64,000 nucleotides of DNA from a virus (IMGVR_UViG_3300027631_000002:32001-96000), one strand, 5' to 3'; shown: positions 6,407 to 37,760, numbered from the stretch's first letter. Numbers and translations: made by a program. The notes: a model not told the origin generated them from the sequence alone.

Positions 6407-6841
6407 ATGAATACACATAGTAAATTGCGAGAGATAGGTTTTACAAGAACTGATTTTCATAAACCTTATGAATACATGGATGGTGGTACTAATAATATGG
6501 TACTAGATAATGTTGTAAAAAAATGGGCTCAGAGAAAAGACGGCACTTATGGTTGGATAGAAATATCTAAGATACATCCAAAGTCTAATTCGTTTTGGAA
6601 ACTAGTTTTTAATGAAAGACATACAATTTGGATTTCTGTTGTGAATAATATTATAGATAAGGTTTGGTTAGAAGATAAAGAAATAAAAAGACCGATTGGT
6701 TATAGTAGTAGAGATGAAAGTCCATTGAAAACTATTTATACTTATGAAACTATAAATAAAATAACAAGCAAAAGACAAATAATCAATTTACTACCAGCTG
6801 CCATAAAAAGAGATTTTGTAATTAGAGATTTATTAAAATAA
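6407..6841 (+). CDS. hypothetical protein with C-terminal RDxK-type tail
   Basis: start moved to ATG downstream of promoter; ends KRDFVIRDLLK. Confidence 0.75.
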   Translation: MNTHSKLREIGFTRTDFHKPYEYMDGGTNNMVLDNVVKKWAQRKDGTYGWIEISKIHPKSNSFWKLVFNERHTIWISVVNNIIDKVWLEDKEIKRPIGYSSRDESPLKTIYTYETINKITSKRQIINLLPAAIKRDFVIRDLLK

Positions 6842-7044
6842 TGAAAGATATAGTAATAGTTGATCATAACTCTGGTGTAAACCAAGCATATGTTGATAGA
6901 TTTGGACCAATCATCGGTACTGAATTAGATGAGGATACACAGAAATCATATCAGACTATGGCCAAACGACTTAAAGAATTAGCAAAACGAAATATGAGAG
7001 TACTTAAAAGAAAAGAAAAAATAAAAAGAATATGCCAGAATTAG
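6841..7044 (+). CDS. hypothetical protein with RDxK-like tail
   Basis: ends KRKEKIKRICQN; overlaps both neighbours. Confidence 0.65.
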   Translation: MKDIVIVDHNSGVNQAYVDRFGPIIGTELDEDTQKSYQTMAKRLKELAKRNMRVLKRKEKIKRICQN

Positions 7045-7832
7045 CAGAAGTAAGAATTATGAGTGATTATATAAATCATCACTCAAAGAAAAGAAAATTT
7101 ACAAAATTATATCATGTTCAGAAAGGTAATATTCCAATCGACTCTGAACTAATCGAAGATTTTGAAGTAATTGCAGAATCTTTTGGTAAAGAACTACAAT
7201 TAAAAACAACAAATGATACAAAAACATTAGACTTCTCTGTATTTATGGGTATGTCTGGTAATTGGAAGTTTGTTCCTACTGAAAACTGGAATGATACTAA
7301 GTTTGTTAGAATGAGAATTGACACGGATGATGGTAATTCCTTATTACTTTATGGTTCATATATGGGACCAAGATACCGATTAGGTGCATTCACTGGTGTG
7401 AAAAGAGGACCAGACCCTACAAAAGAGTTTGATAAATTTAAAAGTAATGTTTTAGATAATTTAAAACTGAAAGCATTTGATAAACCAATTTGTGAGGTTC
7501 TTTTAAATCAAAAATACTTTAATGGAATCGGTAATTACTTACGTTCTACTATTCTTTATTATATAAATGTAAATCCATTTGAATCTGCTAGAACCATTAT
7601 CCTAGAGAATCCAGATATATTAGATTTTTGTAGAGATGTTCCAATTAAAGCTTACACATTAAATGGTGGTCAGCTTACTGATTGGACTAATCCATTCGAT
7701 TCTGATTATGAAGAGTTTAAGAAGTGGGTATTTTATCAGAAAGGTTTATCTTGTAGAGATAATACTGGTAGAACTTTCTGGTATGATGAGAAATGGGATT
7801 CTTATTCCATATATAAAAGTAAAACTAAATAG
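7032..7832 (+). CDS. nei: Fpg/Nei family DNA glycosylase (NEIL1-like, no Zn finger)
   Basis: N-terminal MPELAEV, FMGMSG, H2TH motif LLNQKYFNGIGNYLRSTILY. Confidence 0.88.
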   Translation: MPELAEVRIMSDYINHHSKKRKFTKLYHVQKGNIPIDSELIEDFEVIAESFGKELQLKTTNDTKTLDFSVFMGMSGNWKFVPTENWNDTKFVRMRIDTDDGNSLLLYGSYMGPRYRLGAFTGVKRGPDPTKEFDKFKSNVLDNLKLKAFDKPICEVLLNQKYFNGIGNYLRSTILYYINVNPFESARTIILENPDILDFCRDVPIKAYTLNGGQLTDWTNPFDSDYEEFKKWVFYQKGLSCRDNTGRTFWYDEKWDSYSIYKSKTK

Positions 7833-8017
7833 TGAAGATTGAGTTTGATAAAAATCATTATGTTGTTTGTGAAGGAATTACTTTACCTTTAACAAGGGAA
7901 CAGATTATGGATATGCAATCATATGGTTATGATGCTCAAAATGTCATAGAAGATTTTTATAGAAAAAGTACTGCATATGTTAGGGATCAAAAGATTGATT
8001 TAATACTAAAAAAATAA
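7832..8017 (+). CDS. small protein with RDxK tail
   Basis: ends VRDQKIDLILKK. Confidence 0.65.
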   Translation: MKIEFDKNHYVVCEGITLPLTREQIMDMQSYGYDAQNVIEDFYRKSTAYVRDQKIDLILKK

Positions 8018-8040
8018 AGAGAGACTTTCGTCTCTCTTTA
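8015..8040. terminator. bidirectional terminator
   Basis: TAAAGAGAGAC-tttc-GTCTCTCTTTA. Confidence 0.85.
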
Positions 8041-8043
8041 TTT

Positions 8044-8898
8044 TTATACTACATCTTGCATTAATTCAAATGCTTCTTTTTCTATTTCTTTTTGAAGTAA
8101 CTCCATAGCTCTTGCTAATCTTGTTAAACCAATTCCTGCACCAAATCTTGGAAAGAAGTCAAATTTTAAGAAATCTTCTAATTCTTTTTCTACTCTTTCT
8201 TTTCCAAATAATTCAAATAGTTTTTCAGAATATCCACCATTTTCTATTGTATAAAACATTTTTCTCATAGAGTCAACTTCACAACTTCTTTCTGCCGCAC
8301 CTATTGTTTCTTGTCCATATAATATTACATCAACTTTGTTGAATAAATCATCTTGTTGATTTTTCATATTCCAAAATGGATTAGTTCTTAATGGAAAGTT
8401 TTGAAGAGAAACGCAATGACTTACTTCATTCCACATTTTACTTTCATGTTCATTTTCTAAAATTGATACGTCTCCATATTCTTTACAAGTTTTATTGTAA
8501 TCCATTTCAACAGGTGATCCAAATCCTAAATACTCAAGAAGTTCTTTTTCTAATAGAATTAAATCTTTATATTTACCTTTTGATTCAAACTCAAACATTG
8601 GAAAGATTAGTTCATGTCTTCCAGGAATTGGATTTTTTTCTGCTCTGTAGCTTGTAGATACACAGAAAACTCCTTCCCAAGTAGGATTTTTTAGAAGTTC
8701 ATACTCGAGCCACATTTGCCCTGTTTGTGGTAAAGGCCATATCTCACCATTGTATTCAAAGGTTGATACTGAGTGTGGGTTTTCACAAGCTGCTAAAATT
8801 GATAGTCTAGATTGTGTTGGTACTTCTACGAAGTTTTTTTCCAAAAAAAATTCTCTTAGTTTCTGAACTAGAGAATTGTACATTAAAGTGTTTGTCAT
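8044..8898 (-). CDS. class II aaRS catalytic-domain-only protein (AsnRS/AspRS-like, no anticodon OB domain)
   Basis: motif 1 LREFFLEKNFVEVPT, motif 2 SYRAE..RH..FPMFEFE, motif 3 GAGIGLTRL; 284 aa. Confidence 0.8.
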   Translation of the reverse strand: MTNTLMYNSLVQKLREFFLEKNFVEVPTQSRLSILAACENPHSVSTFEYNGEIWPLPQTGQMWLEYELLKNPTWEGVFCVSTSYRAEKNPIPGRHELIFPMFEFESKGKYKDLILLEKELLEYLGFGSPVEMDYNKTCKEYGDVSILENEHESKMWNEVSHCVSLQNFPLRTNPFWNMKNQQDDLFNKVDVILYGQETIGAAERSCEVDSMRKMFYTIENGGYSEKLFELFGKERVEKELEDFLKFDFFPRFGAGIGLTRLARAMELLQKEIEKEAFELMQDVV

Positions 8899-8960
8899 AT
8901 AAGATTTTTTTTTTAATCAAAGTATAAATACCCTGATTAAAATTTATTCTTGATATATAT

Positions 8961-8992: not shown

Positions 8993-9001
8993 AATTTTTT
9001 T

Positions 9002-9340
9002 TTATGTCAATAGATCAATTTTTAAATCTCTTCTATTTTCTATAGTATCATATGTAGCTTTTTGTGTAAACCAATCGTGTACCACATCAATGTCTGTTTT
9101 TTGGTAGTCTAACCAACAGTTATCCTGTGTACTATACTTCATAAACTTTGTAAGTTCTTCGCTAGTATATTTTTTAAGTTTCATTTCTCTGATACGGTTA
9201 CCTTCTAATGTAATTATTATACCATTATCGGTTATATCTAAAATTCCTAACCAAAATGTTAGCATTTCTTGAAAAATCATTCCTTTTTCAAATAGTCCAT
9301 TGAAAACTATTTCATTTGTTTTATCGTTTATCTTACTCAT
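9002..9340 (-). CDS. hypothetical protein with RDxK tail
   Basis: ends RRDLKIDLLT; TATATTTG at 9357-9364. Confidence 0.72.
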   Translation of the reverse strand: MSKINDKTNEIVFNGLFEKGMIFQEMLTFWLGILDITDNGIIITLEGNRIREMKLKKYTSEELTKFMKYSTQDNCWLDYQKTDIDVVHDWFTQKATYDTIENRRDLKIDLLT

Positions 9341-9375: not shown

Positions 9376-9759
9376 TTAAACTCCAATAGAATTTAATTTT
9401 TCATTTCTAAAATAAGAAACAAGTTTTTCCGATAATATTTCAAATGCTTTTACTTCAAAGTCTTCAAGTCTAGAAACTTTGTATCTTAGTGAACTACCAG
9501 AATTTTTCTTTGAAAGAAGTTCTTGATAAATTTGTATCATTTCTTCTTCACTAGGTTCTAATTCCTCTTTAAAATTAGAGAAATCTAGTTGTGAAATATG
9601 TGTACTATTGTGGTATAAATCTTGTGTTAGTTCTGCGGATATTCTACCTGATAATGTAATAAATTGGTTCCTCGAATGCTCATAAAAAATTGCGGTTAAA
9701 GTGTTTTTAAGTGATTCTTGTTGATAAGTGATCTTGCAATTTATTAGTATGTTTTTCAT
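9376..9759 (-). CDS. hypothetical protein with RDxK-like tail
   Basis: ends FRNEKLNSIGV. Confidence 0.72.
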   Translation of the reverse strand: MKNILINCKITYQQESLKNTLTAIFYEHSRNQFITLSGRISAELTQDLYHNSTHISQLDFSNFKEELEPSEEEMIQIYQELLSKKNSGSSLRYKVSRLEDFEVKAFEILSEKLVSYFRNEKLNSIGV

Positions 9760-10297: not shown

Positions 10298-10573
10298 TTA
10301 TTCCTCTTTCAATATATTTTCTAACTTTTCTTCTCTTTTAACCGCAAGCTCCCACACCATGTAATCTTCTTCTGACATTAGTTCAGATTCTTTAAAAAGA
10401 CGCGCATTTCTATTATACTTTGTAACAACGTCAGCGAGGCAACCACTATACTCACAATCATATTGATTTTCTGTATCTGGTTCATCTAGGTTAGCTTCTA
10501 AATAACGTTGTATAGACATTTTACCATAAGATTTATGATAAACGGGTTTATTAAGGTCAAATTTATTTCTCAT
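10298..10573 (-). CDS. hypothetical protein with RDxK-like tail
   Basis: ends KREEKLENILKEE; TAACTTTG 4 nt before ATG. Confidence 0.72.
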   Translation of the reverse strand: MRNKFDLNKPVYHKSYGKMSIQRYLEANLDEPDTENQYDCEYSGCLADVVTKYNRNARLFKESELMSEEDYMVWELAVKREEKLENILKEE

Positions 10574-12374: not shown

Positions 12375-13772
12375 TTAGTTACATTCATAACAATCAACTC
12401 TACCACTACCTCCACATTCATCACATTCTGATGTTCCATCACCATCACATCTTCCACATTCTTCTAGACCACGACCTCCACATTCTTTACATTCTACTGT
12501 ACATTCTCCGTCACATTTATCACAAGTTGATCTACCATCACCATGACAATCATCACATGATTTTTTCCCATTTCCTTCACAGTCAGTGCATTCTTCACCT
12601 TCTTCATCAGTTCCGTCTCCATCACAAGTTTCACACTCTACTTCGCCATAACCATCACAATCACGACACTCTACTTCACCATCTCCATCACATTTTGGAC
12701 AGTTCTCTGTTCCATCACCTTCACATTCAGAACATTCTTGTTCTCCTTCTCCATCACATCTGTAACATTGTCTTTCTCCTGCATCACATTCTTCACATTC
12801 AAAACTACCTCTTCCACCACAATTATCACAAGAACCATCTCCACCATCGGTACTAGTTAGTTCTGCATCGTAGTTTGAGTTATAGTTTGTACTAAGTTGT
12901 CCTTTGTCTCTTAGAAGATATTTCAGTGTATCCATATAAGGATAATCATCAAAATTTGATTGTTCTAATGTAACATAAACCCAGCTATCTTCTCTTTCAA
13001 GTTGTTCTCCATTAAACATAATAGGATCACCTGTGTGGAATGTTTGATTCATTTTATAATAGAATTCGTTTTCTTTTGCAAAGTCTATAAATAATTCAGT
13101 ATCAGAATGGTTTATAATATAAACTCGGTCCATAAATTTTCTTCCTTTATCATCTAACCAAAGAAGTGCTCTAGCTGTAATTTTATCTGGATTCTCTACA
13201 GATCTTAATATAATAAGTGATACTCTATCCGGATTATCGGAATAGATTGATAAGAATTGTTGACATTTTGGATATCTCATGCAGGAAGAACCTAGTGTTC
13301 CTAATTCTTTATCGTAATTTTCTACGTGATACCATTTTTTAATATCGTTACCATTAACTATTTCAAATCTTGTAAAAGATTCTTTCTCTATTAAGATAGT
13401 TGCTTTATATTTACTTACAAAATCTTCAAGATCTTTTGGTTTAACTTCGATGCCTGCTTTGGTTAGAATTGCTCTTACAAATCTACCAACATTCATGTCA
13501 GATTTTTTAATTGTTTTAGGATCTTCTACTTTTTTTGCTTTATCATCTGGTGTAAAGAATACTTTATCTTCTTTATCTACATCATATGAGATATAGTTAT
13601 AGTTAGTATCTACCTCTTCACCGTCTAATTTTAATAATTCAGATGCAACTGGAGATTTTATTTTTTTCAATAAGTCATAAAACTTATCATCTAGTACAAT
13701 TGTTGCTTCTAATAAAAGCATCATGTCTTTTTCTAGTAAAAATTCGTCGTATTTTGATATTTTATTATTCAT
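12375..13772 (-). CDS. paralogue A: conserved SCM/RALLW/MDRVY core plus 14 CxxC(xGxG) DnaJ-type Zn repeats
   Basis: translation; start corrected to MNNKISKYDEFLLEK. Confidence 0.8.
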   Translation of the reverse strand: MNNKISKYDEFLLEKDMMLLLEATIVLDDKFYDLLKKIKSPVASELLKLDGEEVDTNYNYISYDVDKEDKVFFTPDDKAKKVEDPKTIKKSDMNVGRFVRAILTKAGIEVKPKDLEDFVSKYKATILIEKESFTRFEIVNGNDIKKWYHVENYDKELGTLGSSCMRYPKCQQFLSIYSDNPDRVSLIILRSVENPDKITARALLWLDDKGRKFMDRVYIINHSDTELFIDFAKENEFYYKMNQTFHTGDPIMFNGEQLEREDSWVYVTLEQSNFDDYPYMDTLKYLLRDKGQLSTNYNSNYDAELTSTDGGDGSCDNCGGRGSFECEECDAGERQCYRCDGEGEQECSECEGDGTENCPKCDGDGEVECRDCDGYGEVECETCDGDGTDEEGEECTDCEGNGKKSCDDCHGDGRSTCDKCDGECTVECKECGGRGLEECGRCDGDGTSECDECGGSGRVDCYECN

Positions 13773-13830
13773 AATGTATATATTATTTTTTTTTATGTGA
13801 AAAGTCAATTATTTTTTTAATATATAGTTT

Positions 13831-17795: not shown

Positions 17796-18188
17796 TTAAA
17801 TTATTTCTTCAATTTTCTTATCTCTCATTTCTGCAGTAGATAAAATTTCTTTTACAAAGATATGAAAATTACTCGTAAAAGTAATCAAGTTGAATGAAAT
17901 ATTTGTACTCATTCCGGCACCACTTGATTGACTATCTAAAGTTGGATTTGTCTTTGTAATACTTCCCCAATAGTTAAATCCAAATGATGGTTCATAAATA
18001 GCACTATTACTACTTCTTTCATTCCAAAATTCTATTACAAATGTTTTGCTTTCTGTTTCGTTACTGTCATATTCATATAAAATTGTAAATTGATCATTGT
18101 CATAAAATATATTTAAAATCTTACTGTAAGCAGGTAAATGAAAGCTTGCTTGATTATAACTGGTGTGTGTTGATTGTGTTGTTATCAT
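17796..18188 (-). CDS. hypothetical protein with RDxK tail
   Basis: ends MRDKKIEEII. Confidence 0.72.
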   Translation of the reverse strand: MITTQSTHTSYNQASFHLPAYSKILNIFYDNDQFTILYEYDSNETESKTFVIEFWNERSSNSAIYEPSFGFNYWGSITKTNPTLDSQSSGAGMSTNISFNLITFTSNFHIFVKEILSTAEMRDKKIEEII

Positions 18189-18550
18189 ATTCCTAATTTA
18201 CTTAAAATTTTATCTCTATAGAAACTTATATCATCAACAATAAAAAGGTTTGAATCTGTAATAATTAGATCATCAATAATCTCAATAATCTTTGATGTTT
18301 TTTGTAGTGACATAATTCCTACATTTTGATTACTTGTAACTATTTGATCTATTTCTAATAAATCTACATTAGCTGGTTCTTGATTTACAATACCTTTACA
18401 TCTTTGTATAGAATACTTATCTATAAATTCTTTATTATTTAATATTTTTTTATAGAATTTATTTTCAGTATCTACCATAACATAGGAAACCTCGGTAGAT
18501 TTCCCACCGAGGTGATTATGAATTAAATCTCCTACCTTAATTAGTTTCAT
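18185..18550 (-). CDS. hypothetical protein with RDxK-like tail
   Basis: IKVGDLI N-terminus; ends YRDKILSKLGI. Confidence 0.72.
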   Translation of the reverse strand: MKLIKVGDLIHNHLGGKSTEVSYVMVDTENKFYKKILNNKEFIDKYSIQRCKGIVNQEPANVDLLEIDQIVTSNQNVGIMSLQKTSKIIEIIDDLIITDSNLFIVDDISFYRDKILSKLGI

Positions 18551-19400: not shown

Positions 19401-19643
19401 TTATTTTTGATTTATTAGAGAAATTTTTTGAATTCTTGTTAGTTGTTTAATTCTCCACTCTTCTTTTGCTGCCAAAGATTTTGTTTCAAATTCACACTGA
19501 TACATCAGTTTTACTGGTGTTCTTGTCTTGGTGTATTTAGCACCTTTCTTCTTATTATGTGTATCAATTCTCTTTTCTACGTTATTGGTTATACCGGTAT
19601 ATAACGTCAAATCACTACACTCTAAAATATAAACATACCACAT
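19401..19643 (-). CDS. GIY-YIG nuclease family protein (YhbQ-like)
   Basis: WYVYILEC..LYTGITNN..R..HN..GAKYT..E..IK. Confidence 0.9.
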   Translation of the reverse strand: MWYVYILECSDLTLYTGITNNVEKRIDTHNKKKGAKYTKTRTPVKLMYQCEFETKSLAAKEEWRIKQLTRIQKISLINQK

Positions 19644-21889: not shown

Positions 21890-22255
21890 ATGGAAATTAT
21901 ACAGCGACATGGCATTGCCTTTAAAGTAATAGAAAGAAAGATGAATTTCCCTTTCATAACTGATTGTGATGATATGTTATGTGAAGATATAAGTTCATTT
22001 TATTCAGACCCAAACACACAATCTATTGTTCTAATTAGAGATAACTATTCTAAACCTATTATGACTTATCAAGATGTTCTTGATGAGATAGAGTATCTAT
22101 ATGATAATAGTATTCGTTGGAGAAGTGAAGAAAGAAGAGATAGTTTAAGAACTTACTATCATAAAGTCTCTAATATAATGAAAACTTACAAAAGACAAGA
22201 ACAAATAAATAAGGTATTAAATAGTAACGAATGTACATTTCACCTAGCATGTTAA
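21890..22255 (+). CDS. hypothetical protein with RDxK-like tail
   Basis: KRQEQINKVL; TATCTTTG 4 nt upstream. Confidence 0.72.
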   Translation: MEIIQRHGIAFKVIERKMNFPFITDCDDMLCEDISSFYSDPNTQSIVLIRDNYSKPIMTYQDVLDEIEYLYDNSIRWRSEERRDSLRTYYHKVSNIMKTYKRQEQINKVLNSNECTFHLAC

Positions 22256-22767
22256 AAAACAAATTATACTTATTCGATAAGTGGTTATACAAAGATAGAA
22301 ACTCATTACTTGTTTTACTATTAGTTGTTGGTTCTACATTTATGATTAGTTATGAACCTACTATTTTTTATGGTATTGGATTATTATCTATCATATGTTT
22401 TTATGTTGTCTTTATAAAAGCAAAAATTTTAGGTCAAGATTGGAAACTAGATAAGTCAGTATATGATGTACCACAAGAACAAGAAATTATAGTAACGACA
22501 AAAGATTTTTATTGGGATGGTTATGTCAAATCAAATCACATACATAGTCATACTAGTAAACCTAATACACTTTTTGTAAAGAAAGGAACAGAATTTAAGA
22601 TTATTGATTTAAAAGAAGAGAAAGAAGATTGGAGACTAATGCTAAAAAAAGGTAATGGTGAAATGATTATTACGGTAGGTTACTTTGAATCAAGAAAGTA
22701 TTATAAAACAAAGTCTCAAATTAGAGAAGAAAAATTAAAGAAATTATTAAGTAAAAAAATATGGTAA
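22231..22767 (+). CDS. membrane protein with RDxK-like tail
   Basis: two N-terminal hydrophobic segments; IREEKLKKLL. Confidence 0.72.
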   Translation: MYISPSMLKNKLYLFDKWLYKDRNSLLVLLLVVGSTFMISYEPTIFYGIGLLSIICFYVVFIKAKILGQDWKLDKSVYDVPQEQEIIVTTKDFYWDGYVKSNHIHSHTSKPNTLFVKKGTEFKIIDLKEEKEDWRLMLKKGNGEMIITVGYFESRKYYKTKSQIREEKLKKLLSKKIW

Positions 22768-23471
22768 AATTACTACCCGCAACATTCAAATGGGTTCCCA
22801 AATTAGATGATGTTATCAAGATTTCCGGTCTACATCCAAGTCGAGTATTTAACGTAACTATTTTTGGTTCACGTGTTTATGGTAATTATGATTCAGCATC
22901 TGACTGGGATATTATTATAGTTGCAAATAATTCAGTAGAAGCAATTGAGTTAAAAGAAACTGTGCAAGACGAGTATTCTTATAATATGAATCATAGATTT
23001 ATTACATATAACATTCACATTTATACACCAGATAGATTTCAAAAGGATTTAGATTGGCATCGTATGAATAATCTTGAATGTATCTTTGCACCAGACTGGG
23101 CTAAGTTAAAAGAAGATAAAAAATATGAGTTTAACTTAGACTTAAAAAAATTAAGACATGCTTCATCACATATTAGTTCTAATTCTTGGATAAAATGTAA
23201 GAAAAAACTATTGATTGATGATCAGTATCGTACTGCTATAAAATCATTCTATCATTCTATAAGAATACCTATGTTTGCAACACAAATTGCTAGAAGTGGT
23301 AGAATAACTGACTTTACAACTGCTAACTTTATTTGGAGAAGACTTATGTTTGATGAAGTTCCTAGTTATCAAAAGAAAGATAGTAAATGGGATTGGGATT
23401 CTTTAAATTTAGAGTTTAAAATTACATATAATCTAATGTTAAGTTTATTTAGAAAAGTAACTGATAAATAA
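22761..23471 (+). CDS. Pol-beta superfamily nucleotidyltransferase
   Basis: IFGSRVYG..SDWDIIIV. Confidence 0.82.
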   Translation: MVKLLPATFKWVPKLDDVIKISGLHPSRVFNVTIFGSRVYGNYDSASDWDIIIVANNSVEAIELKETVQDEYSYNMNHRFITYNIHIYTPDRFQKDLDWHRMNNLECIFAPDWAKLKEDKKYEFNLDLKKLRHASSHISSNSWIKCKKKLLIDDQYRTAIKSFYHSIRIPMFATQIARSGRITDFTTANFIWRRLMFDEVPSYQKKDSKWDWDSLNLEFKITYNLMLSLFRKVTDK

Positions 23472-23707
23472 TGGAAGAAGAATTAGAAAAATTATATCAA
23501 GATTTACTTACAAATAGACAAACCTATAGAGGTCAAGGTTTATTACAAGTTAGTCCGCCACAACCACATCAGAATTTAATTGATAATCCAACGGTTATAA
23601 ATTATGATTTTGCTTCTTTGTATCCAAGTGTTCAGAAAAAGTATTATTATAAAATAAGTATGAAAGTTTCTATTAGAAAAAGAAAGATTAGAAATATATT
23701 ACAATAA
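23471..23707 (+). CDS. mini-protein carrying a family-B polymerase motif A peptide and an RDxK-like tail
   Basis: YRG..VSPP..VINYDFASLYPSV; ends IRKRKIRNILQ. Confidence 0.65.
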   Translation: MEEELEKLYQDLLTNRQTYRGQGLLQVSPPQPHQNLIDNPTVINYDFASLYPSVQKKYYYKISMKVSIRKRKIRNILQ

Positions 23708-25359: not shown

Positions 25360-26787
25360 TTAGTAATCACCTTCACAGTCTGGACAAGTAATCTGATCAT
25401 CACCATCACATTGTGAACAAGTTTTCTTACCTTCACCACCACATGTTTCACATTCCATATCATCTATTTCACCATCTCCATTACATTCAGTACAAACTTC
25501 TTCACCATCTCCATTACAAGTTGGACAAGTAATAGTACCATCTTGTTCACAAGTTGCACAAAGTTTATCATAATAACCTTCAGTTGATTCACAATAATAA
25601 ACTACTCCACTTTCTGAATTTTCATTTGATATAATTCCAGTTTCAGGACTATAGTATTTTAAAGTATCCATATAAGGAAAATTTTCATGTCTTTTATGTA
25701 ATTGAACTTGTGCAGTAAAATAGTTTTCCTGTTGACCTTCTGGTCCAATAGCATTTATAGTTGAAGAACTATTATTATTTGATTTATACCACCAACCACT
25801 ATCTTGTGCAAATTGTTTGAACAGTTCAACATCAGAATCAGAATTAGTATAAACCCTATCCATTAATTTTTTACCATTTAAACATTCCCAAAGAATTGCA
25901 CGTCCAATAATTTTACTATCATCATCTTGTGATTTATAAATAATTAAAGATACAGTGTTGTTTTCAGTATATGGATCTAACCAACTAGATTCAGCTTCTG
26001 CCATACAAGAATTTGCTAATGTACCACTTGGATCATAGTAATTATCATACTGATATTTATAATAAATATCATCACCTTGAACAACATCAAAGAATGAGAA
26101 TTTATCATTGAATTTATCCATCTGAGCTTTATATAAATTCACAAAGATTTCAATATCTCTTGCTGTAAATTTGGCAGTATCATCTTCTCTAGCAGCTAAA
26201 GTTAAAAGAGCATTCATTGATCTACCAACTCTAACATCTTGACGATTTTTTGACCAAACCAATTTGTTTCTATCATCAACTGGTCTCAATTTCTCTAAAT
26301 TAAAAACACCTTGACCATTTGCAAATTTTAACCAAATCCAAGTTTTACCAGATTTTTCAGAAACTATCTTTTCAACAACTTCACCAACTTCTGCTGATGT
26401 AGGTTTATAAACATCTCCTTCTGGTACATATCCTAATCTACCAAAAATTCCATTATTTGCTTCACCGTGAGTTAGCCATCCACCATTATTTCCTACAAAA
26501 CGATATAATTCTTTTGGATCATTTAAAATCTCTTGAGCTTTTCTATCTGCAGTAAAGTACAAATAATCATTTCTTACTGGATCTATATCAAAGTAGTTAG
26601 CAACTACTGGTAAGTCTTTCTTTTCTAATCCTAGAATCTTTTTAGCAACAGGACTATCAATTTTACCTAATACTTTCTTAAAATTATCTGAAAACATTAC
26701 ATCCGACTCTAATAAAAGTTCAATCAATTGAGATTCTGTTATTAAATCATGTGATTCTGTTATAAAATCAATATATTTTTTTAACAT
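25360..26787 (-). CDS. paralogue C: SCM/RAILW/MDRVY core plus 6 CxxC repeats
   Basis: translation; MLKKYIDFITES. Confidence 0.8.
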   Translation of the reverse strand: MLKKYIDFITESHDLITESQLIELLLESDVMFSDNFKKVLGKIDSPVAKKILGLEKKDLPVVANYFDIDPVRNDYLYFTADRKAQEILNDPKELYRFVGNNGGWLTHGEANNGIFGRLGYVPEGDVYKPTSAEVGEVVEKIVSEKSGKTWIWLKFANGQGVFNLEKLRPVDDRNKLVWSKNRQDVRVGRSMNALLTLAAREDDTAKFTARDIEIFVNLYKAQMDKFNDKFSFFDVVQGDDIYYKYQYDNYYDPSGTLANSCMAEAESSWLDPYTENNTVSLIIYKSQDDDSKIIGRAILWECLNGKKLMDRVYTNSDSDVELFKQFAQDSGWWYKSNNNSSSTINAIGPEGQQENYFTAQVQLHKRHENFPYMDTLKYYSPETGIISNENSESGVVYYCESTEGYYDKLCATCEQDGTITCPTCNGDGEEVCTECNGDGEIDDMECETCGGEGKKTCSQCDGDDQITCPDCEGDY

Positions 26788-26865
26788 TATTATAATATAA
26801 TTTTTTATTATATATTATTATTTCATTCTCATAAATTATACTTATATTTGTTCAAATTATATAAA

Positions 26866-27222
26866 ATGAGTACATTCGGTAAGAAAGCGTTAGTTTTTTG
26901 GAATTACGATTCTAATGAAACAAATCGTTTTAGTAAAACACCAATAGAAATACAACTAAAGATACTAGAGAAATGGTATCCAATTGGATATATGTGTAAA
27001 TTTTTTCCACCGACTTATCCTTCTGATCGAGTCTATCAAATAAAAGACTACTTATTACATGTAGGTGGTTTTTATACAGTACTTATAGAGCAAAAGATTA
27101 CAGAAGGATATTCATCGATGATAGTAAAGAATGGATATAATCCTTTAAGATTAGATATGATAGATAAACAGATACTATTAAGAGATTATAAATTAGAGAG
27201 AATATTAAAAAACCCATCTTAA
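26866..27222 (+). CDS. hypothetical protein with RDxK tail
   Basis: start corrected past TATATTTG (26843-26850); LRDYKLERILK. Confidence 0.72.
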   Translation: MSTFGKKALVFWNYDSNETNRFSKTPIEIQLKILEKWYPIGYMCKFFPPTYPSDRVYQIKDYLLHVGGFYTVLIEQKITEGYSSMIVKNGYNPLRLDMIDKQILLRDYKLERILKNPS

Positions 27223-27240: not shown

Positions 27241-27981
27241 TTATGCTTTTCTTAAAACTTCTTTAGTATAGTAATCTTCAAAACCATCTAGGTAAGTAGT
27301 AATCGGTGTTGATTTATCAGTGATAATGATTTCATCAATAAATCCAAAGTCTAAAGCTTCTTGTGAGTTTAACCAATTATCTCTTCTAGCACTTTCAAGT
27401 ACATAATCAAAATCTCTACCACTATTCTCTGCAAGCATCTTGAATAATATATAGTTGTATTTTTCTGATTCCATTTGAGAAATACGATTATCTTCAACGT
27501 GTCCTGATGCACCAGAAGAAACTTGATGTATCATTACTTTAGAGAAGTTTAATGATGCTCTTTTACCTTTAGTTCCTGATGATAATAAGATAGAACCCAT
27601 TGATGCTGCCATACCTGTATTGATAGTTTCAACATCCGAATTGATATATCTCATAACATCAACCATACCTAATCCAGCTAAAACTGAACCACCTGGTGAG
27701 TCAATGTGCATCTTAATATCTTTTTTCTCAACAGAGTCTAAATACATCAATTGAGCTTGAACAACGGTTGACATTTGTGTGTTTACAACACCAGCAACCC
27801 ATAATATACGATCACGCATGAGTCTACTAAAAATGTCCATCTGCGTTACTCTCATTTCTCTTTCTTCAAGAATATATGGTGTCATACTATTCTCTACTAA
27901 ACCTTTTTCAAAGTAGTCTAAGTTTAAAGAAGAAATTCCTTCACTTAAAGCATACTTTTTAAAATCTTTTCCAAAATCCAT
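27241..27981 (-). CDS. clpP: ATP-dependent Clp protease proteolytic subunit
   Basis: DIFSRLMRDRI, IDSPGGSV, GMAASMGS (catalytic Ser), MIHQ, RDNWL. Confidence 0.96.
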   Translation of the reverse strand: MDFGKDFKKYALSEGISSLNLDYFEKGLVENSMTPYILEEREMRVTQMDIFSRLMRDRILWVAGVVNTQMSTVVQAQLMYLDSVEKKDIKMHIDSPGGSVLAGLGMVDVMRYINSDVETINTGMAASMGSILLSSGTKGKRASLNFSKVMIHQVSSGASGHVEDNRISQMESEKYNYILFKMLAENSGRDFDYVLESARRDNWLNSQEALDFGFIDEIIITDKSTPITTYLDGFEDYYTKEVLRKA

Positions 27982-28099: not shown

Positions 28100-28717
28100 A
28101 TGAAAAACGCTTTTAAGTTATTTGACTTTATGGGAACTCCAGTTTATTTGAAATACTGGTTCTTTATCTTACTTCCTTTATTTATGTTACAATCTGGTGG
28201 ATTTACAGAACAAGGATTTCTAACTGGGTTAGATTGGTTCTTATCAATCTTTGCCGCAGTCTTATTACATGAATTGGCACATACTGCAGTTGCTAAAAAA
28301 TTGAATCATCCAGTAGATCATGTTTATTTAGATGTGTTTAATGGTGCGGCCGCAATTGATACAACCTACTCTTCTTATAAAGATACTATTCTTATTGTAT
28401 TGGCCGGCCCACTCTCAAATTTAGTATTATGGATTATTGGTTCTTATTTAGGACTGGATATATTTGTACAAGTGAATATGTTTTTATTCATATTTAATAT
28501 TTTACCTATTTATCCAATGGATGGTGGTCGAATTTGTAAAGCAATTTGTCAATGGATGACTAAACCTTCGCTCGGAAGAAAAATAAATGGATATATCTCG
28601 ATCATTTTTAGTTCATTACTATTTATTGCATCGATTATGACTACTAATGTTATTATGGCTATATTTGCAGTCTTTTTTATCTTTCTTTCATATAAGGAAA
28701 TAGAACAAAAATATTAA
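28100..28717 (+). CDS. M50 family (site-2) intramembrane zinc metalloprotease
   Basis: LHELAH, AGPLSN, FNILPIYPMDGGR, multiple TM segments. Confidence 0.92.
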   Translation: MKNAFKLFDFMGTPVYLKYWFFILLPLFMLQSGGFTEQGFLTGLDWFLSIFAAVLLHELAHTAVAKKLNHPVDHVYLDVFNGAAAIDTTYSSYKDTILIVLAGPLSNLVLWIIGSYLGLDIFVQVNMFLFIFNILPIYPMDGGRICKAICQWMTKPSLGRKINGYISIIFSSLLFIASIMTTNVIMAIFAVFFIFLSYKEIEQKY

Positions 28718-28719: not shown

Positions 28720-29238
28720 ATGTTAGACATTGGTAAAACAAATCTTTTCCTAAATGACAAAGCTAAATATGTTGTTAGTAAACTAATAGACGATTATGAT
28801 CTTATGGGTCAAAATTGTTTGTTTTTAACTCATAAGAATGACACGTTACAACTTAAATGTGCTTCTTGTACTTATACTACTTATGATTCAATACCAGATA
28901 TTTTATCTGAGAATTTATTTAGAGTAAATATTATTATTGTCGAGTCAAATAGAAAATTTAATTTTTTACTTGATTCTATAAGAGAAGTAACAGATTTACC
29001 AGTTATTGTAGTTACTGATGATTTATCATATGATTATCCAGATTATAGATTTGATTATATTTATAAACTTTATAGACAAGAAAGAGATATAAATTTCCCA
29101 TTAAATATAGATAGATTTGAAGAAGAATTTTTAAATAGTTCACATATAACAGATGTTAAAAATAATTGGAGCACATCTTTGGCAGATTTAAGAACACAAT
29201 ACATTAGAGATAAAAAAATTAACGATTTATTAAAATAA
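28720..29238 (+). CDS. hypothetical protein with RDxK tail
   Basis: ends IRDKKINDLLK. Confidence 0.72.
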   Translation: MLDIGKTNLFLNDKAKYVVSKLIDDYDLMGQNCLFLTHKNDTLQLKCASCTYTTYDSIPDILSENLFRVNIIIVESNRKFNFLLDSIREVTDLPVIVVTDDLSYDYPDYRFDYIYKLYRQERDINFPLNIDRFEEEFLNSSHITDVKNNWSTSLADLRTQYIRDKKINDLLK

Positions 29239-29240: not shown

Positions 29241-29666
29241 ATGAAAGCACACGTAATTGTAAAAAAAGGTTATGAGTATGATGATAGCATCTATACTGAG
29301 TCAGAGGGTGGAAATCCTGAATTGATTTGTTTCTCAAAAGAGGATGCGGATAATAAAGTAAATGAATTAAATAAACAGGAGTTTAAAACAACTTCACTTA
29401 GTTATTATTCATATGAATTAGAAGACATATTAAATGTTGATATTGAAGAATATGAAAAGTTCAATCAATCCTTGGTTGAAAAGTATGGTAAGATAGCGAA
29501 AAAAGATTCTTGGAATGATGTTGAAAATACTTTACATCCAATGGCAAATGATGAAGAGATTGAGAAATATATAAAGATGGTTAGTATAAGTTTTTATGAA
29601 GTAAAACCGACAGACATTGATGTTCAAAGTTTTAGAGATTATAAAATTGATGAAGTATTAAAATAA
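29241..29666 (+). CDS. hypothetical protein with RDxK tail
   Basis: ends FRDYKIDEVLK. Confidence 0.72.
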   Translation: MKAHVIVKKGYEYDDSIYTESEGGNPELICFSKEDADNKVNELNKQEFKTTSLSYYSYELEDILNVDIEEYEKFNQSLVEKYGKIAKKDSWNDVENTLHPMANDEEIEKYIKMVSISFYEVKPTDIDVQSFRDYKIDEVLK

Positions 29667-29692: not shown

Positions 29693-30571
29693 ATGAGATA
29701 TATATTCTTTCTTTTTCTATTTATATTATTTTCTTGTAAAACTACAAAGAATACAATTGTGTTACCTACACCTTTAGAAACTTTTTGTGATAGTGATGAG
29801 GATGGTGTTGATGATATGTATGATAAATGTCCTGATATAAAAGGTAGAGTAGAAAATATGGGTTGTCCTGATATTGAGGAAAATGAAAAGTATTCCGGAA
29901 CAAAAGATGATATTGAAATTGTTGGATCACCAAAAGAGCCAGTTCCTGTAATAGTTGCTAAAGATAGAAATACTAAAACTGGTACAAAAAAAAATGATCC
30001 ACTGGTAATTAAACCTAAAGAGGTTAGACCTAGAGGTTTAATAGCTTATTCTGTACCAAATGAAATGCAAGTTGGTGATGATTATTTAGTAAAAGTTAGA
30101 ATAAGTAAACTGAATGATAGAACTGTTTTATTAGTTGGTGATAGAGAGATTCCTATATCTGATAATTTAGAGGATGTTAAAGTTGAATCAATTACAGTTT
30201 CTCCAATAATGTCTGCGAGTTTATTATCAAGTAAAAGAGATTTTGAGATAACTACATTATCAACAGAAATTCAAAATATAGATGATGAAGGATATACTGA
30301 ATGGAGTTGGAGTGTAATTCCTTTACAAGGTGGTGAAAATAATTTAAAACTTAATGTAAAAATTAGAATACAAGAAGAAGGTAAAGACTATTATAAGGAT
30401 ATTACCGTCTTTGAAAGAAAGATAAAAGTCAAGTCTAATATTGGTTCCAGTATAAAAGACTTCATATTCAAAAACTGGGAGTGGTTTATGGGAGTGGTTT
30501 TTATCCCGATTTTTCAATGGTTTTGGCTATTGTGGAAGAGGAAAAAAGAAGATAAAAAAGAAGATGTTTAA
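29693..30571 (+). CDS. lipoprotein with TSP3-like Ca-binding repeat and C-terminal TM helix
   Basis: ILFSC lipobox; DSDEDGVDDMYDKCP; WEWFMGVVFIPIFQWFWLLW. Confidence 0.75.
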   Translation: MRYIFFLFLFILFSCKTTKNTIVLPTPLETFCDSDEDGVDDMYDKCPDIKGRVENMGCPDIEENEKYSGTKDDIEIVGSPKEPVPVIVAKDRNTKTGTKKNDPLVIKPKEVRPRGLIAYSVPNEMQVGDDYLVKVRISKLNDRTVLLVGDREIPISDNLEDVKVESITVSPIMSASLLSSKRDFEITTLSTEIQNIDDEGYTEWSWSVIPLQGGENNLKLNVKIRIQEEGKDYYKDITVFERKIKVKSNIGSSIKDFIFKNWEWFMGVVFIPIFQWFWLLWKRKKEDKKEDV

Positions 30572-30638
30572 TTACATCTTTTTTTATTTTATAAACATAA
30601 TTGTATAATTTGAATACAAATAAAAATAAAAAAATATT

Positions 30639-31871
30639 ATGGATAATATAAATCTAGTAGAGTCTTTTACTGAGTTAAAAGATGTTAAAAACATTGATAA
30701 ATCATCAATGATTAAAATAATGCAAGAAGTTTTTCAAACTATAATCATAAAGAAATATGGTTCTGCTGATAACTTTGATATTATTGTAAATCCAAATAAA
30801 GGAGATTTAGAGATATGGAGAAATCGAACAATTGTAGAAGATAATTATGAAGAGTTTGATGAAAACTTACATATTAAATTGACTGATGCGCATAAAGTAG
30901 AATCTGATTTTGAAGTTGGAGAAGACTTAACTGATGAAGTTAAGATTGCGGACTTTGGAAGACGTTCAATTTCATCAATTCGTCAAATACTTAAATCTAA
31001 AATTATTGATTTAGGTAAAGAATCTTTATATAAAAAATATAAAGATAGAGAAGGTGAAATTTTTACTTGTGAAGTATATCAAATTTTAAGAAAAGAAACA
31101 ATTGTTATTGATGATGAAGGTAATGAATTTGTTTTACCTAAAACAGAACAAGTACCTGGTGATTTTTATAGAAAAGGAGATTCAATTAGAGCTATTTTAC
31201 AAACTGTTTCTATTGATAATGGTAAACTTTTTATGACACTATCAAGAACTTCTAATAGATTCTTAGAAAAATTATTTGAACTTGAAATACCTGAGGTATT
31301 TGATGGTTTAATTACCGTTAAAGCAGTTGTTAGAGAGCCTGGTTCTAAAGCAAAAGTTGCGGTTGAGTCTTATGATGATAGAATTGATCCTGTTGGAACT
31401 TGTGTTGGTGTTAAAGGTAGTAGAATACATAGTATTGTAAGAGAACTTAACAACGAAAACATTGATGTTATTAGTTACACTACAAATAAATCATTATTTG
31501 TTACAAGAGCACTTGGTCAAAGTAAGGCAACTGTAGAGTTAGATGAGGAAAAGAAAACCGCTAATGTGGTTATACCTTCTGAAAACATTTCATTGGCAAT
31601 TGGTAAAGGTGGTATGAATATTAAACTAGCAAGTAGAATAAGTGGATATAAAATAAATGTATTCTCTGATGTTGAACATAATGAAGATGTTTTATTAGAA
31701 GATTTCTCTGATGAAATTGATGGTTGGATTATCGATGAGTTTAAGAAAGTTGGATTTGATACTGCCAAAAGTGTTTTAAAAGCAGACTTTAACTACATTG
31801 TAAAACAAACAGATTTAGAAGAAGAAACAATAAGAGAAGTTATTAAAATTTTAGAAATCGAATTTAATTAA
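30639..31871 (+). CDS. nusA: transcription termination/antitermination factor NusA
   Basis: DFGRR, S1 domain, VREPGSKAKVAV, DPVGTCVGVKGSRI, AIGKGGMNIKLAS, HhH tail. Confidence 0.95.
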   Translation: MDNINLVESFTELKDVKNIDKSSMIKIMQEVFQTIIIKKYGSADNFDIIVNPNKGDLEIWRNRTIVEDNYEEFDENLHIKLTDAHKVESDFEVGEDLTDEVKIADFGRRSISSIRQILKSKIIDLGKESLYKKYKDREGEIFTCEVYQILRKETIVIDDEGNEFVLPKTEQVPGDFYRKGDSIRAILQTVSIDNGKLFMTLSRTSNRFLEKLFELEIPEVFDGLITVKAVVREPGSKAKVAVESYDDRIDPVGTCVGVKGSRIHSIVRELNNENIDVISYTTNKSLFVTRALGQSKATVELDEEKKTANVVIPSENISLAIGKGGMNIKLASRISGYKINVFSDVEHNEDVLLEDFSDEIDGWIIDEFKKVGFDTAKSVLKADFNYIVKQTDLEEETIREVIKILEIEFN

Positions 31872-31900
31872 AAAAAGAGACTCAAATGAGTCTCTTTTTT
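31869..31900. terminator. bidirectional terminator
   Basis: AAAAAAGAGACTC-aaat-GAGTCTCTTTTTT. Confidence 0.85.
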
Positions 31901-32483
31901 ATTTTATTAAGTAAAGTTTGAAATTACTAAATTTTGGTTTTTCATTTAGAAAGTAATACTTTTCTGTTATACCATTATATTTTATAATCTTTAAGAAAGC
32001 ATCTGGTACTGTTGCACCAGTTGGTAACTTAATTGATTTATCAGAAAAGATAAGTTTTATCTCAACATCAACTTTATAACTTTTGGCTACTTTTCTTTCA
32101 TATACTTCTAAAAATCTCCAAGTACCTCTATTTAAGTATTGATTTTGTAATGTACAGTTTAGATAAGTAAATGTTTTAAACAACATTACTTTATCACAGT
32201 TAAAGTCTGCGGCGGGTGCACAATGTCCTTTGTCATATATGTTTGTTTCATAATCTTTTGCATCAGATGTCTTATAAAGCTTTTCAGTATAGAATTCCAT
32301 ACCCTGTCTTGATGCTTTACCATCTTGACAAAGTACACGGTACTTAACTCTCAATGGTTGTTCAAATTTTTCTGAATAACTGACTTCAAAAATATCTGTT
32401 TTAACTAACACACTATCTCTAACAACTTGAGAATGGCTCATGAGTGTTGTCATAAATAAGAAAATCGATAATAATTTCTTCAT
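31899..32483 (-). CDS. secreted DNA/RNA non-specific endonuclease (NucA/EndA family)
   Basis: signal peptide; YDKGHCAP, Q..LNRGTWRFLE, VPDAFLKI. Confidence 0.88.
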   Translation of the reverse strand: MKKLLSIFLFMTTLMSHSQVVRDSVLVKTDIFEVSYSEKFEQPLRVKYRVLCQDGKASRQGMEFYTEKLYKTSDAKDYETNIYDKGHCAPAADFNCDKVMLFKTFTYLNCTLQNQYLNRGTWRFLEVYERKVAKSYKVDVEIKLIFSDKSIKLPTGATVPDAFLKIIKYNGITEKYYFLNEKPKFSNFKLYLIK

Positions 32484-33406: not shown

Positions 33407-33407
33407 T

Positions 33408-35486: not shown

Positions 35487-35516
35487 TTGAACATTGAATT
35501 TTTTTCACTATATTTG
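35487..35516 (+). promoter_or_regulatory. full promoter TTG-N19-TATATTTG
   Basis: exact spacing counted. Confidence 0.75.
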
Positions 35517-35535
35517 TAAAAATTATATAATAGAA

Positions 35536-36804
35536 ATGAAAGAACAACTAAGTCAACTTATAAATGAAAGATCTCCTGGATCTAAACCAATCTTTTTGGT
35601 TGTTAGGGGATCACATGCATATGGAACTAATATAGAAACTTCCGATACTGACTACGCAGGTGTATTTATCCAATCATTGGATGATATTCTTGGTAGTAAA
35701 TACAAACAACAAGTAAATGATGATACTAATGATACTGTAATCTATGAGTTACGTAGATTTTTAGAATTACTATCTAGTAATAATCCAACTGTTTTAGAAT
35801 TACTTAATACTCCAGAGGAATGTATTATCTATAAAGATCCTATTTTTGATCTAATATTAGAGAATAGAGAACAATTTATTACTAAAATCTGTGCTAATTC
35901 TTTCGGTGGTTATGCAAAAGCTCAAATTGGTAAAGCAAAAGGTCAAAATAAAAAACAAAACTGGGAAAAGGATAAAGTAACTCGTAAAGACTTGCTTGAC
36001 TTTTGTTATGTTATTCAAGGAACAAAAGCAATTCCATGGAAAAAATGGAATGATGGTAGATTTGATGAAAGATTTATTGGTGCAGTAAATGTTCCATATG
36101 CAAAAGATGTTTATACTTTATTCTACGATAGTGAAGGTGATATGATGTTCTCTGGAAAAGAGAAAAAAGAGTTGAGTGATATGATGATTCAACAACGTAA
36201 AGATGCTGGTCTTGCATTAGGTCTTGGTTATAAAGGATTAGTTAAAGTAGGTACAACTACTATTGATAGAAGTAAACTTACTAATATGACTGATGAACAA
36301 ATTGATAGACTTGAGTTAGTTTTTCAAAAAGAGGCTGAGAAAAACTTAGGTGTATCAAATCAATTGAGATTATCATCAATTCCAAAAGGTCAAGAACCAT
36401 TTTGTACTATTACTTATAACAAAGATGGTTATTCAGAACACTGTAAAGACTTTAGAGAGTATGAAGAATGGTTATCAAAGAGAAATCTTCAAAGATGGGT
36501 GGATGTTAAGTCTCACGGTCAACAAATTGATGGTAAGAATATGATGCACTGTCGTAGATTGATGGATATGGCTCGTGAGATTGCAGAGGGTAAAGGTATT
36601 CTTGTTAAGAGAGATAATGCACAAGAACTTCTTGCAATTAGAAGAGGTGAAATAGATTTACAAACTTTGATTGATCATGTTGAAAGCGAGATTAAAGAAG
36701 TAGATACTTTGTTTAAAGAATCAAATTTACCAGAAAAGGTAGATGAAAATTTTATAAATAGTTTATTAGTAAAAATTAGAAAATCAGTTTATGGTATACA
36801 ATAA
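35536..36804 (+). CDS. RNA-repair-associated Pol-beta nucleotidyltransferase (RlaP/NrdC.11-like)
   Basis: VRGSHAYGTN..SDTDYAG, NPTVLELL, KNMMHCRRL. Confidence 0.85.
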   Translation: MKEQLSQLINERSPGSKPIFLVVRGSHAYGTNIETSDTDYAGVFIQSLDDILGSKYKQQVNDDTNDTVIYELRRFLELLSSNNPTVLELLNTPEECIIYKDPIFDLILENREQFITKICANSFGGYAKAQIGKAKGQNKKQNWEKDKVTRKDLLDFCYVIQGTKAIPWKKWNDGRFDERFIGAVNVPYAKDVYTLFYDSEGDMMFSGKEKKELSDMMIQQRKDAGLALGLGYKGLVKVGTTTIDRSKLTNMTDEQIDRLELVFQKEAEKNLGVSNQLRLSSIPKGQEPFCTITYNKDGYSEHCKDFREYEEWLSKRNLQRWVDVKSHGQQIDGKNMMHCRRLMDMAREIAEGKGILVKRDNAQELLAIRRGEIDLQTLIDHVESEIKEVDTLFKESNLPEKVDENFINSLLVKIRKSVYGIQ

Positions 36805-37426
36805 CGTTTCAATTATCGCAATTATTATAGGGTTCTTTTGTTTAGGATATTTATTTAATAATCTTTTAAGAAAGATTATTGATGGGTATAATGATGGTAA
36901 GTATAAAAAAGAAATTACGGATATTTTTCAAAATGTATTGGATAATCTTTATACAAATAAGACAAGTTTTATTAGTAGAATCAATAACACTGTTACTATT
37001 ATGACTGAACTAAATGAGGTAGGTGTGGTAAATGTTGTTTATCTAATGGATAGACGTGATATAGCTATATTCAAAGGAGATAAATGTATATATACATCAG
37101 ACTCAATAGATAAGTCAGTGGTCGATGAAATAATTGTGGGTGTGGATGTTTTCTATAAACATGAGATAAATGATGTCGTAAATGTAATGGGTATGGTTTT
37201 CTCTCGTGATGAATTTGAGAATAAGTTCAAAATAAAAGTAGAAGATATGAAGAAGGGTATGTTTGGTGGTTTTCCTAAAGAAGAAATGTCAGATATTGAA
37301 AAAATAAAAAGACAAAATGAGATAAAGTTTAATATAGATGATATATTAGATAGAATTACATCTGTTGGTATTGAAAATCTTACACCAGAGGAAAAAAGAT
37401 TTTTAGATAGCTATAACAATGAATAA
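36791..37426 (+). CDS. membrane-anchored protein with DUF6576-like C-terminus
   Basis: N-terminal TM; NIDDILDRITSVGIENLTPEEKRFL. Confidence 0.7.
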   Translation: MVYNNVSIIAIIIGFFCLGYLFNNLLRKIIDGYNDGKYKKEITDIFQNVLDNLYTNKTSFISRINNTVTIMTELNEVGVVNVVYLMDRRDIAIFKGDKCIYTSDSIDKSVVDEIIVGVDVFYKHEINDVVNVMGMVFSRDEFENKFKIKVEDMKKGMFGGFPKEEMSDIEKIKRQNEIKFNIDDILDRITSVGIENLTPEEKRFLDSYNNE

Positions 37427-37760
37427 TCTAGAATTAAATGGATTTAACTCTAATTTTGGTGATTTTAAAATAGTATCTATTTTAAGTGATTATGAAAGTC
37501 ATTGGATATTGGGTTTAACTTCTATTATTCTTGAAAAAGATAGTTTATATTTTTTTATTCAAGATGATAAAGAGAAAATTAGTGATGTTTCTAAGATGCC
37601 GATTTATATAAAAGAGGATTGGATAAATTATAATAAAAATGATTTAAGTTTAGATATTATAAATAAACATATTAAGTATTATAAAAATGATGATGAAGAT
37701 ATGTTTAACTTGCTAATGACAATACGAAGAGATTTTATACTTACAAAGTATATTAAATAA
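37419..37760 (+). CDS. hypothetical protein with RDxK-like tail
   Basis: ends RRDFILTKYIK. Confidence 0.7.
   Translation: MNNLELNGFNSNFGDFKIVSILSDYESHWILGLTSIILEKDSLYFFIQDDKEKISDVSKMPIYIKEDWINYNKNDLSLDIINKHIKYYKNDDEDMFNLLMTIRRDFILTKYIK

Follow-up and report, generated by a model that had tools for sequence, protein, structure and literature searches.

Small proteins of otherwise unrelated sequence were found to end in one common tail, with the core pattern R[DE]xK[IL]xx[IL], in a 64,000-nucleotide stretch of viral DNA (IMGVR_UViG_3300027631_000002:32001-96000), referred to here as the window. A contig of 179,626 bp with a GC content of 28.9% (G000) contains the window as its bases 32001-96000. 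Positions are counted from the first base of the window unless they are marked as contig positions. The tail is carried by approximately 23-25 genes of the contig (~10%), 16-17 of them inside the window, and selection acts on it at the peptide level. In this study, we tentatively favor, at slightly less than even confidence, the explanation that the tail serves as a portable helix for docking or targeting, which would be read by one common putative partner.

Enrichment of the Tail at C-Termini

A first-pass annotation of the window had listed about 15 small proteins with this tail. All 15 C-termini are present at the stop positions given there, and the effect is stronger than was claimed. Three of them match less well. 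The proteins ending at 6841 and 37760 lack the K at position 4, and in the protein ending at 22255 the motif is followed by 11 residues.

Greedy non-overlapping choice of open reading frames (ORFs) gave 230 genes and 55.5 k residues on the contig. The strict pattern R[DE].K[IL]..[IL] had 13 matches in the contig, 12 of which lie within 12 residues of the stop and one of which is internal. This corresponds to a 204-fold C-terminal enrichment over the 230 genes (Fisher p = 1e-14). When residues were shuffled within each protein, the mean number of C-terminal strict matches was 0.05 and the maximum was 2. A looser pattern gave 22 C-terminal and 10 internal matches on the contig (p = 8e-21). The N-terminal zone of the contig genes held 0-1 matches, and no enrichment was found in 699 off-frame or antisense ORFs of the contig. 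Two AT-rich controls were compared. The numbers of C-terminal and internal matches were 2 and 14, respectively, in phage PTm1 (29.7% GC; p = 0.31), and 0 and 10, respectively, in 200 kb of the 735-kb LR756501.1. The data indicate that the C-terminal excess holds against internal sites, shuffled proteins, and AT-rich proteomes, the comparisons proposed in that annotation, and that neither control shows it.

Anatomy of the Tail and Selection on the Peptide

The consensus of 159 tails is R1, D/E2 (~72%), any residue at position 3, K4 (~80%), I/L5, polar residues at positions 6 and 7, I/L8, and L/G/I9, followed by 0-3 residues. The invariance of R1 results from the construction of the tail search. 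Two endings are frequent, namely ...I-L-K/N and ...L-G-I. S/T-L-x-E-Y/F, a helix capping box (S/T-x-x-E) with an aromatic residue, stands before many tails. The distance from R1 to the end ranged from 8 to 20 residues, with a mode of 10 (59 of the 159 tails). Distances of 9, 11, and 12 were found in 27, 22, and 17 tails, respectively, so that 125 of the 159 fall between 9 and 12. A carboxylate-anchored signal of the kind seen in PDZ ligands, PTS1, or ssrA-like tags was rejected, since the tail keeps no fixed register to the last residue.

On a helical wheel, R1, D2, K4, I5, I8, and L9 lie on one face, and the variable positions 3, 6, and 7 on the other. An AlphaFold2 (AF2) model of one bearer, a protein of 141 amino acids (aa) encoded at 29241..29666, was built on a 14-sequence alignment. 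It shows an alpha/beta body (pLDDT 80-93) and, after the last strand, a terminal helix at residues 128-140 (pLDDT 59-74). A Foldseek search of this model against the PDB gave no fold match, and a search of the ESM Atlas with the tail region gave no usable match. The mean hydrophobic moment of the tails was 0.21, compared with 0.28 for control 12-mers, and their net charge is approximately +1. The moment does not exceed the control because R1, D2, and K4 share a face with the hydrophobic residues. The tail had been proposed to be an amphipathic helix. The helix is retained as an AF2 prediction, and the amphipathic character is not borne out. The low moment also argues against the membrane as a docking site, which had been considered as well, and a MinD-like membrane anchor is unlikely.

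The codons of the motif are diverse: I and L are encoded by ATT, ATA, TTA, CTA, and CTT, and R by AGA, CGA, CGT, AGG, and CGC. The comparison used six sets of orthologues, drawn from related IMG/VR contigs whose NusA identity is 69-94%. Conservation was 0.83-0.98 at the key tail positions and 0.69-0.86 in the bodies. Synonymous differences per codon pair were 0.167 at key positions and 0.182 in the flanks, and non-synonymous differences were 0.164 and 0.345, respectively, i.e., halved at key positions. No long DNA identity was found between tails. Several tail bearers face a convergent gene or have a terminator-like hairpin on the 3' side. Since synonymous change is normal and non-synonymous change is halved, selection acts on the tail peptide, which agrees with what the varied synonymous codons of the window had suggested at the outset. 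A nucleic-acid signal lying in frame was rejected on the same grounds, namely a synonymous rate at key codons close to that of the flanks and a varied codon choice.

Bodies, Size, and Gene Order of Tail Bearers

The earlier statement that the N-terminal parts are otherwise unrelated holds at the BLAST level. No match was found between any two of the 23 tail-trimmed bodies of the contig, and 110 tail-trimmed bearers from five genomes fell into 100 BLAST components. Pfam matches were few and mutually different (DUF1660, Cse60, a Pol-beta nucleotidyltransferase (NTase), AAA_22, and a Gp23 fragment), and ten tail bearers compared with Pfam and PHROGs matched no family. One divergent paralogous family was rejected as an explanation at the BLAST and Pfam level, as no similarity or common domain was seen outside the tail. 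A membrane span is predicted in 6-9% of tail bearers.

The tag is found on approximately 20-37% of genes of 40-200 aa, compared with 1-4% of genes longer than 200 aa. Tail bearers are also closely packed: for 66% of them the start of the next gene lies within 15 nt, compared with a reference of 40% (p = 1e-6). Two metagenomic proteins, P0001 and P0003 (227-228 aa), are fusion forms of a 93-aa tail bearer (contig 7274-7555). One tag lies 94 residues before the end of these proteins and another at their C-terminus, which resembles the joining of two tailed genes.

Distribution among Related Huge Phages

The contig encodes a T4-type large terminase, NusA, a topoisomerase, truncated aminoacyl-tRNA synthetases, DHFR, a C5 methylase, and Clp components, and its completeness was estimated at approximately 30% (CheckV). 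Its terminase has 76% identity to that of LR745206.1, a 635-kb uncultured phage, and 40-44% identity to those of LR756504.1 and LR756501.1 (636-735-kb genomes). The nearest cultured phages by terminase are Tenacibaculum phage PTm1 and Flavobacterium phage MaF61 (~30% identity). Judged by its terminase identities to uncultured 635-735-kb phages, the contig is a fragment of an uncultured huge phage. The host is probably a member of the Bacteroidota, as we infer. A scan for Bacteroidota-type promoters (TTG-N17-21-TAnnTTTG) did not distinguish runs of tail-bearing genes from the remaining ones, and so gave no support to the earlier description of the tail bearers as early effectors.

A profile of 24 tails was matched at 10, 4, 19, 42, and 10 places, respectively, in five IMG/VR contigs of related phages (151-476 kb) and at 38 places in LR745206.1. 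The pieces of the related contig G004 held 56 C-terminal and 10 internal matches (p = 2.5e-52). In the densest case, one 20-kb array in the relatives, 24 of 51 genes are tail-bearing. The more distant LR756504.1 carries a variant, R-K-x-K/I-I-x-D/E/N-L-L/I, in which position 2 is K in 55% of tails and D/E in approximately 5%, whereas D/E occupies this position in 72% of tails of the main clade, the uncultured huge phages related to LR745206.1. LR756504.1 has 47 C-terminal and 5 internal matches to the variant pattern (p = 7e-42) and almost none to the main one. In the sampled DNA, no tail-bearer body of LR756504.1 had an orthologue in the main clade. LR756501.1 lacks both variants (pieces L129-L138). 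The C-terminal tags across the relatives, together with the variant in LR756504.1, show that the tag is old in this huge-phage group and differs by lineage.

Other C-terminal motifs recur in LR756501.1. A small set of proteins ends in K-R-T/S-x-L-I/M-D-x-M-L (6 C-terminal and 0 internal matches), and DPYGEE[EN]W has 8 C-terminal and 6 internal matches. Huge phages may carry more than one C-terminal tag.

Within 10 kb on either side of the terminase in 80 relatives, no tails were found, as expected for a structural module. A tblastn search of a phage collection with a 21-aa tail gave no match. The profile of 24 tails, run against 5.8 billion proteins, returned only orthologues of the contig's own tail bearers, all of which keep the tail. 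A profile of 100 tails gave one match with E <= 0.001 among 1.84 billion representatives, at the C-terminus of a 76-aa protein; so short a motif does not allow its spread to be gauged in this way.

Candidate Readers

Under the explanation that we favor, the tail would be a C-terminal recognition helix of approximately 12-14 residues attached to many unrelated small accessory proteins of the lineage. Its conserved face would dock into a groove of one common partner, and docking would give many different "heads" one machine, place, or fate in common. We infer that a single reader exists. The in-step change at position 2 across dozens of unrelated proteins is what would be expected from a common reader or from mutual binding between tails. 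A broader form of the same idea is a proteome-wide peptide address code of the lineage, in which a tag on a tenth to a third of small proteins would deliver dozens to hundreds of unrelated accessory proteins to one phage-specified reader (a machine, compartment, or protease). Tag and reader would co-evolve, as the charge flip at position 2 between the main clade and LR756504.1 suggests. We consider it possible, though on the doubtful side.

Three observations weigh against a common reader. None was found among the candidates examined (the clamp, phage Clp, and the SCM/GRALLW family). The in-step variants could also be the outcome of separate expansions of tail-bearing genes in each lineage after the two had diverged. 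Finally, tail bearers are found disproportionately often in tight tandem arrays, and there may be some link of the tail to array organization or gene birth.

The sliding clamp was considered as a reader through clamp-binding tails of the T4 or PIP type. The C-terminal half of the phage family-B DNA polymerase (PolB; contig 159461-160939, L099:3461-4939; C-terminal fragment 159626-160939) ends in ...SVIMDIFNGF, which is a T4-like hydrophobic/acidic tail and not R-D-x-K-I. The PolB gene is interrupted after ...KLVLNGSY, and its N-terminal half is not on the contig. The 159 tails have aliphatic I/L at positions 5, 8, and 9, and their consensus has no conserved Q or aromatic pair. A clamp-binding tail was rejected on the basis of the different PolB ending and of this consensus.

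The phage's own Clp protease had been named in the first-pass annotation as a possible hub. A ClpC homologue of 686 aa is encoded at contig 30208-32268 (L149:209-2269), ending at position 268 of the window. It aligns to residues 147-741 of B. subtilis ClpC; the N-domain is missing, and the M-domain region and the VGF loop for ClpP docking are kept. Two ClpP paralogues lie at 27241-27981 (- strand) and at contig 167324-167983 (+ strand), and each directly adjoins a tail-bearing gene. Tags and Clp are both present in G000, G004, LR745206.1, and LR756504.1, and PTm1 and MaF61 have neither ClpP nor tags. In G001 (estimated 85% complete), many tails occur without ClpP or ClpC, and G003 (estimated 95% complete) combines tails with ClpC and lacks ClpP. 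Therefore, phage Clp cannot be the obligatory reader, unless the G001 and G003 contigs are incomplete, and the proposed hub is not upheld in that form. A complex prediction of phage ClpC with the 141-aa tail bearer gave a score of 0.00 and a mark of 0.32, which speaks neither for nor against binding.

The SCM/GRALLW family has three paralogues in the window, all on the - strand (12375-13808, 23738-25291, and 25360-26787). Related huge-phage genomes each carry 7-15 copies of it, and PTm1 and MaF61 have none. Its members have conserved SCM, GRALLW, MDRxY, and PYMDT motifs and a C-terminal array of CxxCxGxG zinc fingers of the DnaJ/BSD2 type. The core matched no Pfam or PHROG family. In Foldseek, an AF2 model of residues 144-270 matched only GNAT acetyltransferase folds (probability 0.8-0.95, E ~0.01), and the VIA comparison gave Z of 5.2-7.1, with GNATs in all of the top 50. 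The family occurs in all tag-bearing lineages but is also abundant in LR756501.1, which is without the main motif, and its fold is that of a GNAT-like enzyme. Nothing therefore supports it as the reader.

Alternative Explanations

The tail could be a degron by which small accessory proteins are degraded at a set time. The AAA+ protease would be a host enzyme or the phage ClpC with ClpP1/ClpP2 and would recognize the tail directly or through an adaptor. This would suit a motif that stays close to the free C-terminus (R1-to-end of 9-12 in most tails), the many non-polar endings (LGI, IL, LL), the phage's own N-domain-less ClpC with its VGF loop and two ClpP genes, and the occurrence of ClpP in the tagged LR745206.1 and LR756504.1 and not in the tag-less PTm1 and MaF61. 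The Clp gene content of G001 and G003 does not fit, the distance to the carboxylate is not fixed, and known pore-engaged degrons do not resemble a structured helix that has a conserved face of polar and hydrophobic residues. We regard a degron as unlikely. Gene birth is judged to be quite unlikely as the cause. Here, new small genes would arise in the arrays by partial duplication or recombination that keeps the 3' end, and the tail would stay for a generic reason, such as a cap for folding or solubility or protection of the C-terminus. The enrichment in tight tandem arrays, the rapid turnover of bodies, none of which is common to LR756504.1 and the main clade, and the fusions with an internal and a terminal tail would all follow. 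What gene birth leaves unexplained is that R1, D/E2, and K4 are kept across hundreds of proteins at 60-95% orthologue divergence with normal synonymous change. Moreover, long DNA identity between tails is lacking, and tails also occur on proteins with independent Pfam domains.

The tails might also bind each other as homo- or hetero-oligomers and assemble the small proteins into a common body. An in-step change across a lineage would be natural if tails are their own partners, and the conserved R and D/E could give inter-helix salt bridges. However, 9-12 residues are very short for a stable helix pair, and it is hard to see what purpose promiscuous pairing among over 100 unrelated proteins would serve, so that self-association appears improbable. 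A membrane-targeting amphipathic helix of the MinD/FtsA type is very improbable: the tail is indeed a short C-terminal helix with hydrophobic and basic residues, but, besides its low moment, it has a conserved acidic residue at position 2 and a net charge of about +1, and in LR756504.1 the last residues are net negative. Hardly any weight is given to a signal at the level of nucleic acid or translation (coupling, termination, or promoter) that would be read in frame by chance. The close next start of many tail bearers would agree with it. Against it, synonymous sites are free and the amino acids are kept, 34% of tail bearers have no close next gene and several have a hairpin or a convergent gene, and off-frame ORFs are without the motif.

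Tail Bearers and Neighboring Genes in the Window

The tail bearers of the window are listed in Table 1. In the protein encoded at 9376..9759, the tail is kept in all of approximately 45 metagenomic orthologues with 64-95% identity.

Table 1. Tail-bearing genes in the window; residues after the plus sign follow the core motif.
Protein	Position	Strand	Tail codons	Tail	Remarks
150-aa ORFan	6389..6841	+	6809-6835	RDFVIRDLL+K	Weaker match, V at position 4
67-aa ORFan	6841..7044	+	7009-7035	RKEKIKRIC+QN	Basic sub-type
61-aa ORFan	7832..8017	+	7982-8008	RDQKIDLIL+KK	Followed by terminator-like hairpin; tail kept by orthologues in L088 and L089
112-aa ORFan	9002..9340	-	9005-9031	RDLKIDLLT	Stop directly after; then terminator-like hairpin
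127-aa ORFan	9376..9759	-	9382-9408	RNEKLNSIG+V	LGI-type ending
91-aa ORF	10298..10573	-	10310-10336	REEKLENIL+KEE	Missed by greedy gene calling, recovered separately
130-aa ORFan	17796..18188	-	17799-17825	RDKKIEEII	Stop directly after
121-aa ORFan	18185..18550	-	18191-18217	RDKILSKLG+I	Stop and next start overlap (ATGA)
80-aa ORF	19401..19643	-	19410-19436	RIQKISLIN+QK	Weak candidate; absent from the first-pass list
121-aa ORFan	21890..22255	+	22193-22219	RQEQINKVL	Followed by 11 residues; atypical, yet conserved in orthologues
178-aa protein, two predicted membrane spans	22231..22767	+	22723-22749	REEKLKKLL+SKKIW	
78-aa ORF with PolB motif-A-like YDFASLYPS	23471..23707	+	23675-23701	RKRKIRNIL+Q	Basic sub-type
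124-aa ORFan	26848..27222	+	27181-27207	RDYKLERIL+KNPS	Convergent with ClpP (27241-27981, -)
172-aa ORFan	28720..29238	+	29206-29232	RDKKINDLL+K	Directly downstream of M50 peptidase gene
141-aa ORFan	29241..29666	+	29634-29660	RDYKIDEVL+K	
113-aa ORF	37419..37760	+	37728-37754	RDFILTKYI+K	Weak tail

An M50 peptidase (site-2 protease family, 205 aa) is encoded at 28100-28717 (+ strand), directly upstream of two tail-bearing genes. It lies downstream of ClpP, in a protease-rich neighborhood. Two mini-ORFs resemble stand-alone pieces of essential proteins. One is the PolB motif-A-like ORF of Table 1, and the other corresponds to a segment of the Gp23 major capsid protein (contig 105659-105880, L096:9659-9880, + strand; Pfam Gp23, E = 3.7e-12). 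Each terminates in R-K-x-K-I-x-N-I/L, the basic tag form. The "tail" of the Gp23-like ORF may simply be homologous capsid sequence. A full-length homologue of translation initiation factor IF-3 (IF3_N and IF3_C) is encoded at contig 158894-159427 (L099:2894-3424). It joins the other translation-related genes of the phage, namely the aminoacyl-tRNA synthetase fragments, a peptidyl-tRNA hydrolase domain, and NusA.

Comparison with Known Systems

Clamps, proteases, and shells offer well-known examples of shared terminal docking motifs. Clamp-binding peptides (the PIP-box of PCNA partners, and gp43, gp33, and gp55 of T4/RB69, which bind gp45) likewise place a short C-terminal motif on unrelated proteins that meet at one hub, and a hydrophobic i, i+3, i+4 core is common to both. 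However, the phage tail lacks the aromatic pair, and its bearers are small ORFans rather than replication or transcription factors and are far more numerous (10-35% of small genes). Tethers and degrons of AAA+ proteins and their adaptors (the SspB "XB" motif for ClpX, ssrA, the MuA C-terminus, and HslU/HbYX) are also C-terminal and lead their proteins to a protease or unfoldase, and the phage has ClpC and ClpP. There is no sequence resemblance to them, the carboxylate distance of the tail varies, and relatives without phage Clp genes carry the tag. The ankyrin/PRANC proteins of poxviruses and the cellular F-box or SOCS-box substrate adaptors follow the same logic of variable heads and one C-terminal docking module in large viral gene sets. 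Their modules are folded domains of 40-50 residues read by Skp1/cullin, whereas the phage tail is a helix of approximately 12 residues without homology to them. Cargo-loading peptides of encapsulins and encapsulation peptides of microcompartments are short terminal helices as well, portable among unrelated cargo and binding a shell protein. In contrast, the phage bearers lie in accessory-gene arrays, and no shell gene was seen, although no dedicated test was made. As far as these systems could be examined, the tag shows the defining features of none. Full-text literature searches found no description of such a tag across a phage accessory proteome, in line with the first-pass annotation, which knew of no described function for the tail.

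For the majority of small genes in large phages, no function has been assigned. Should between a tenth and a third of them share one handle, identification of its single reader would give hundreds of ORFans a common destination or fate. If this is true, the tail would also be a transferable tag for targeting proteins in infected hosts of the Bacteroidota type.

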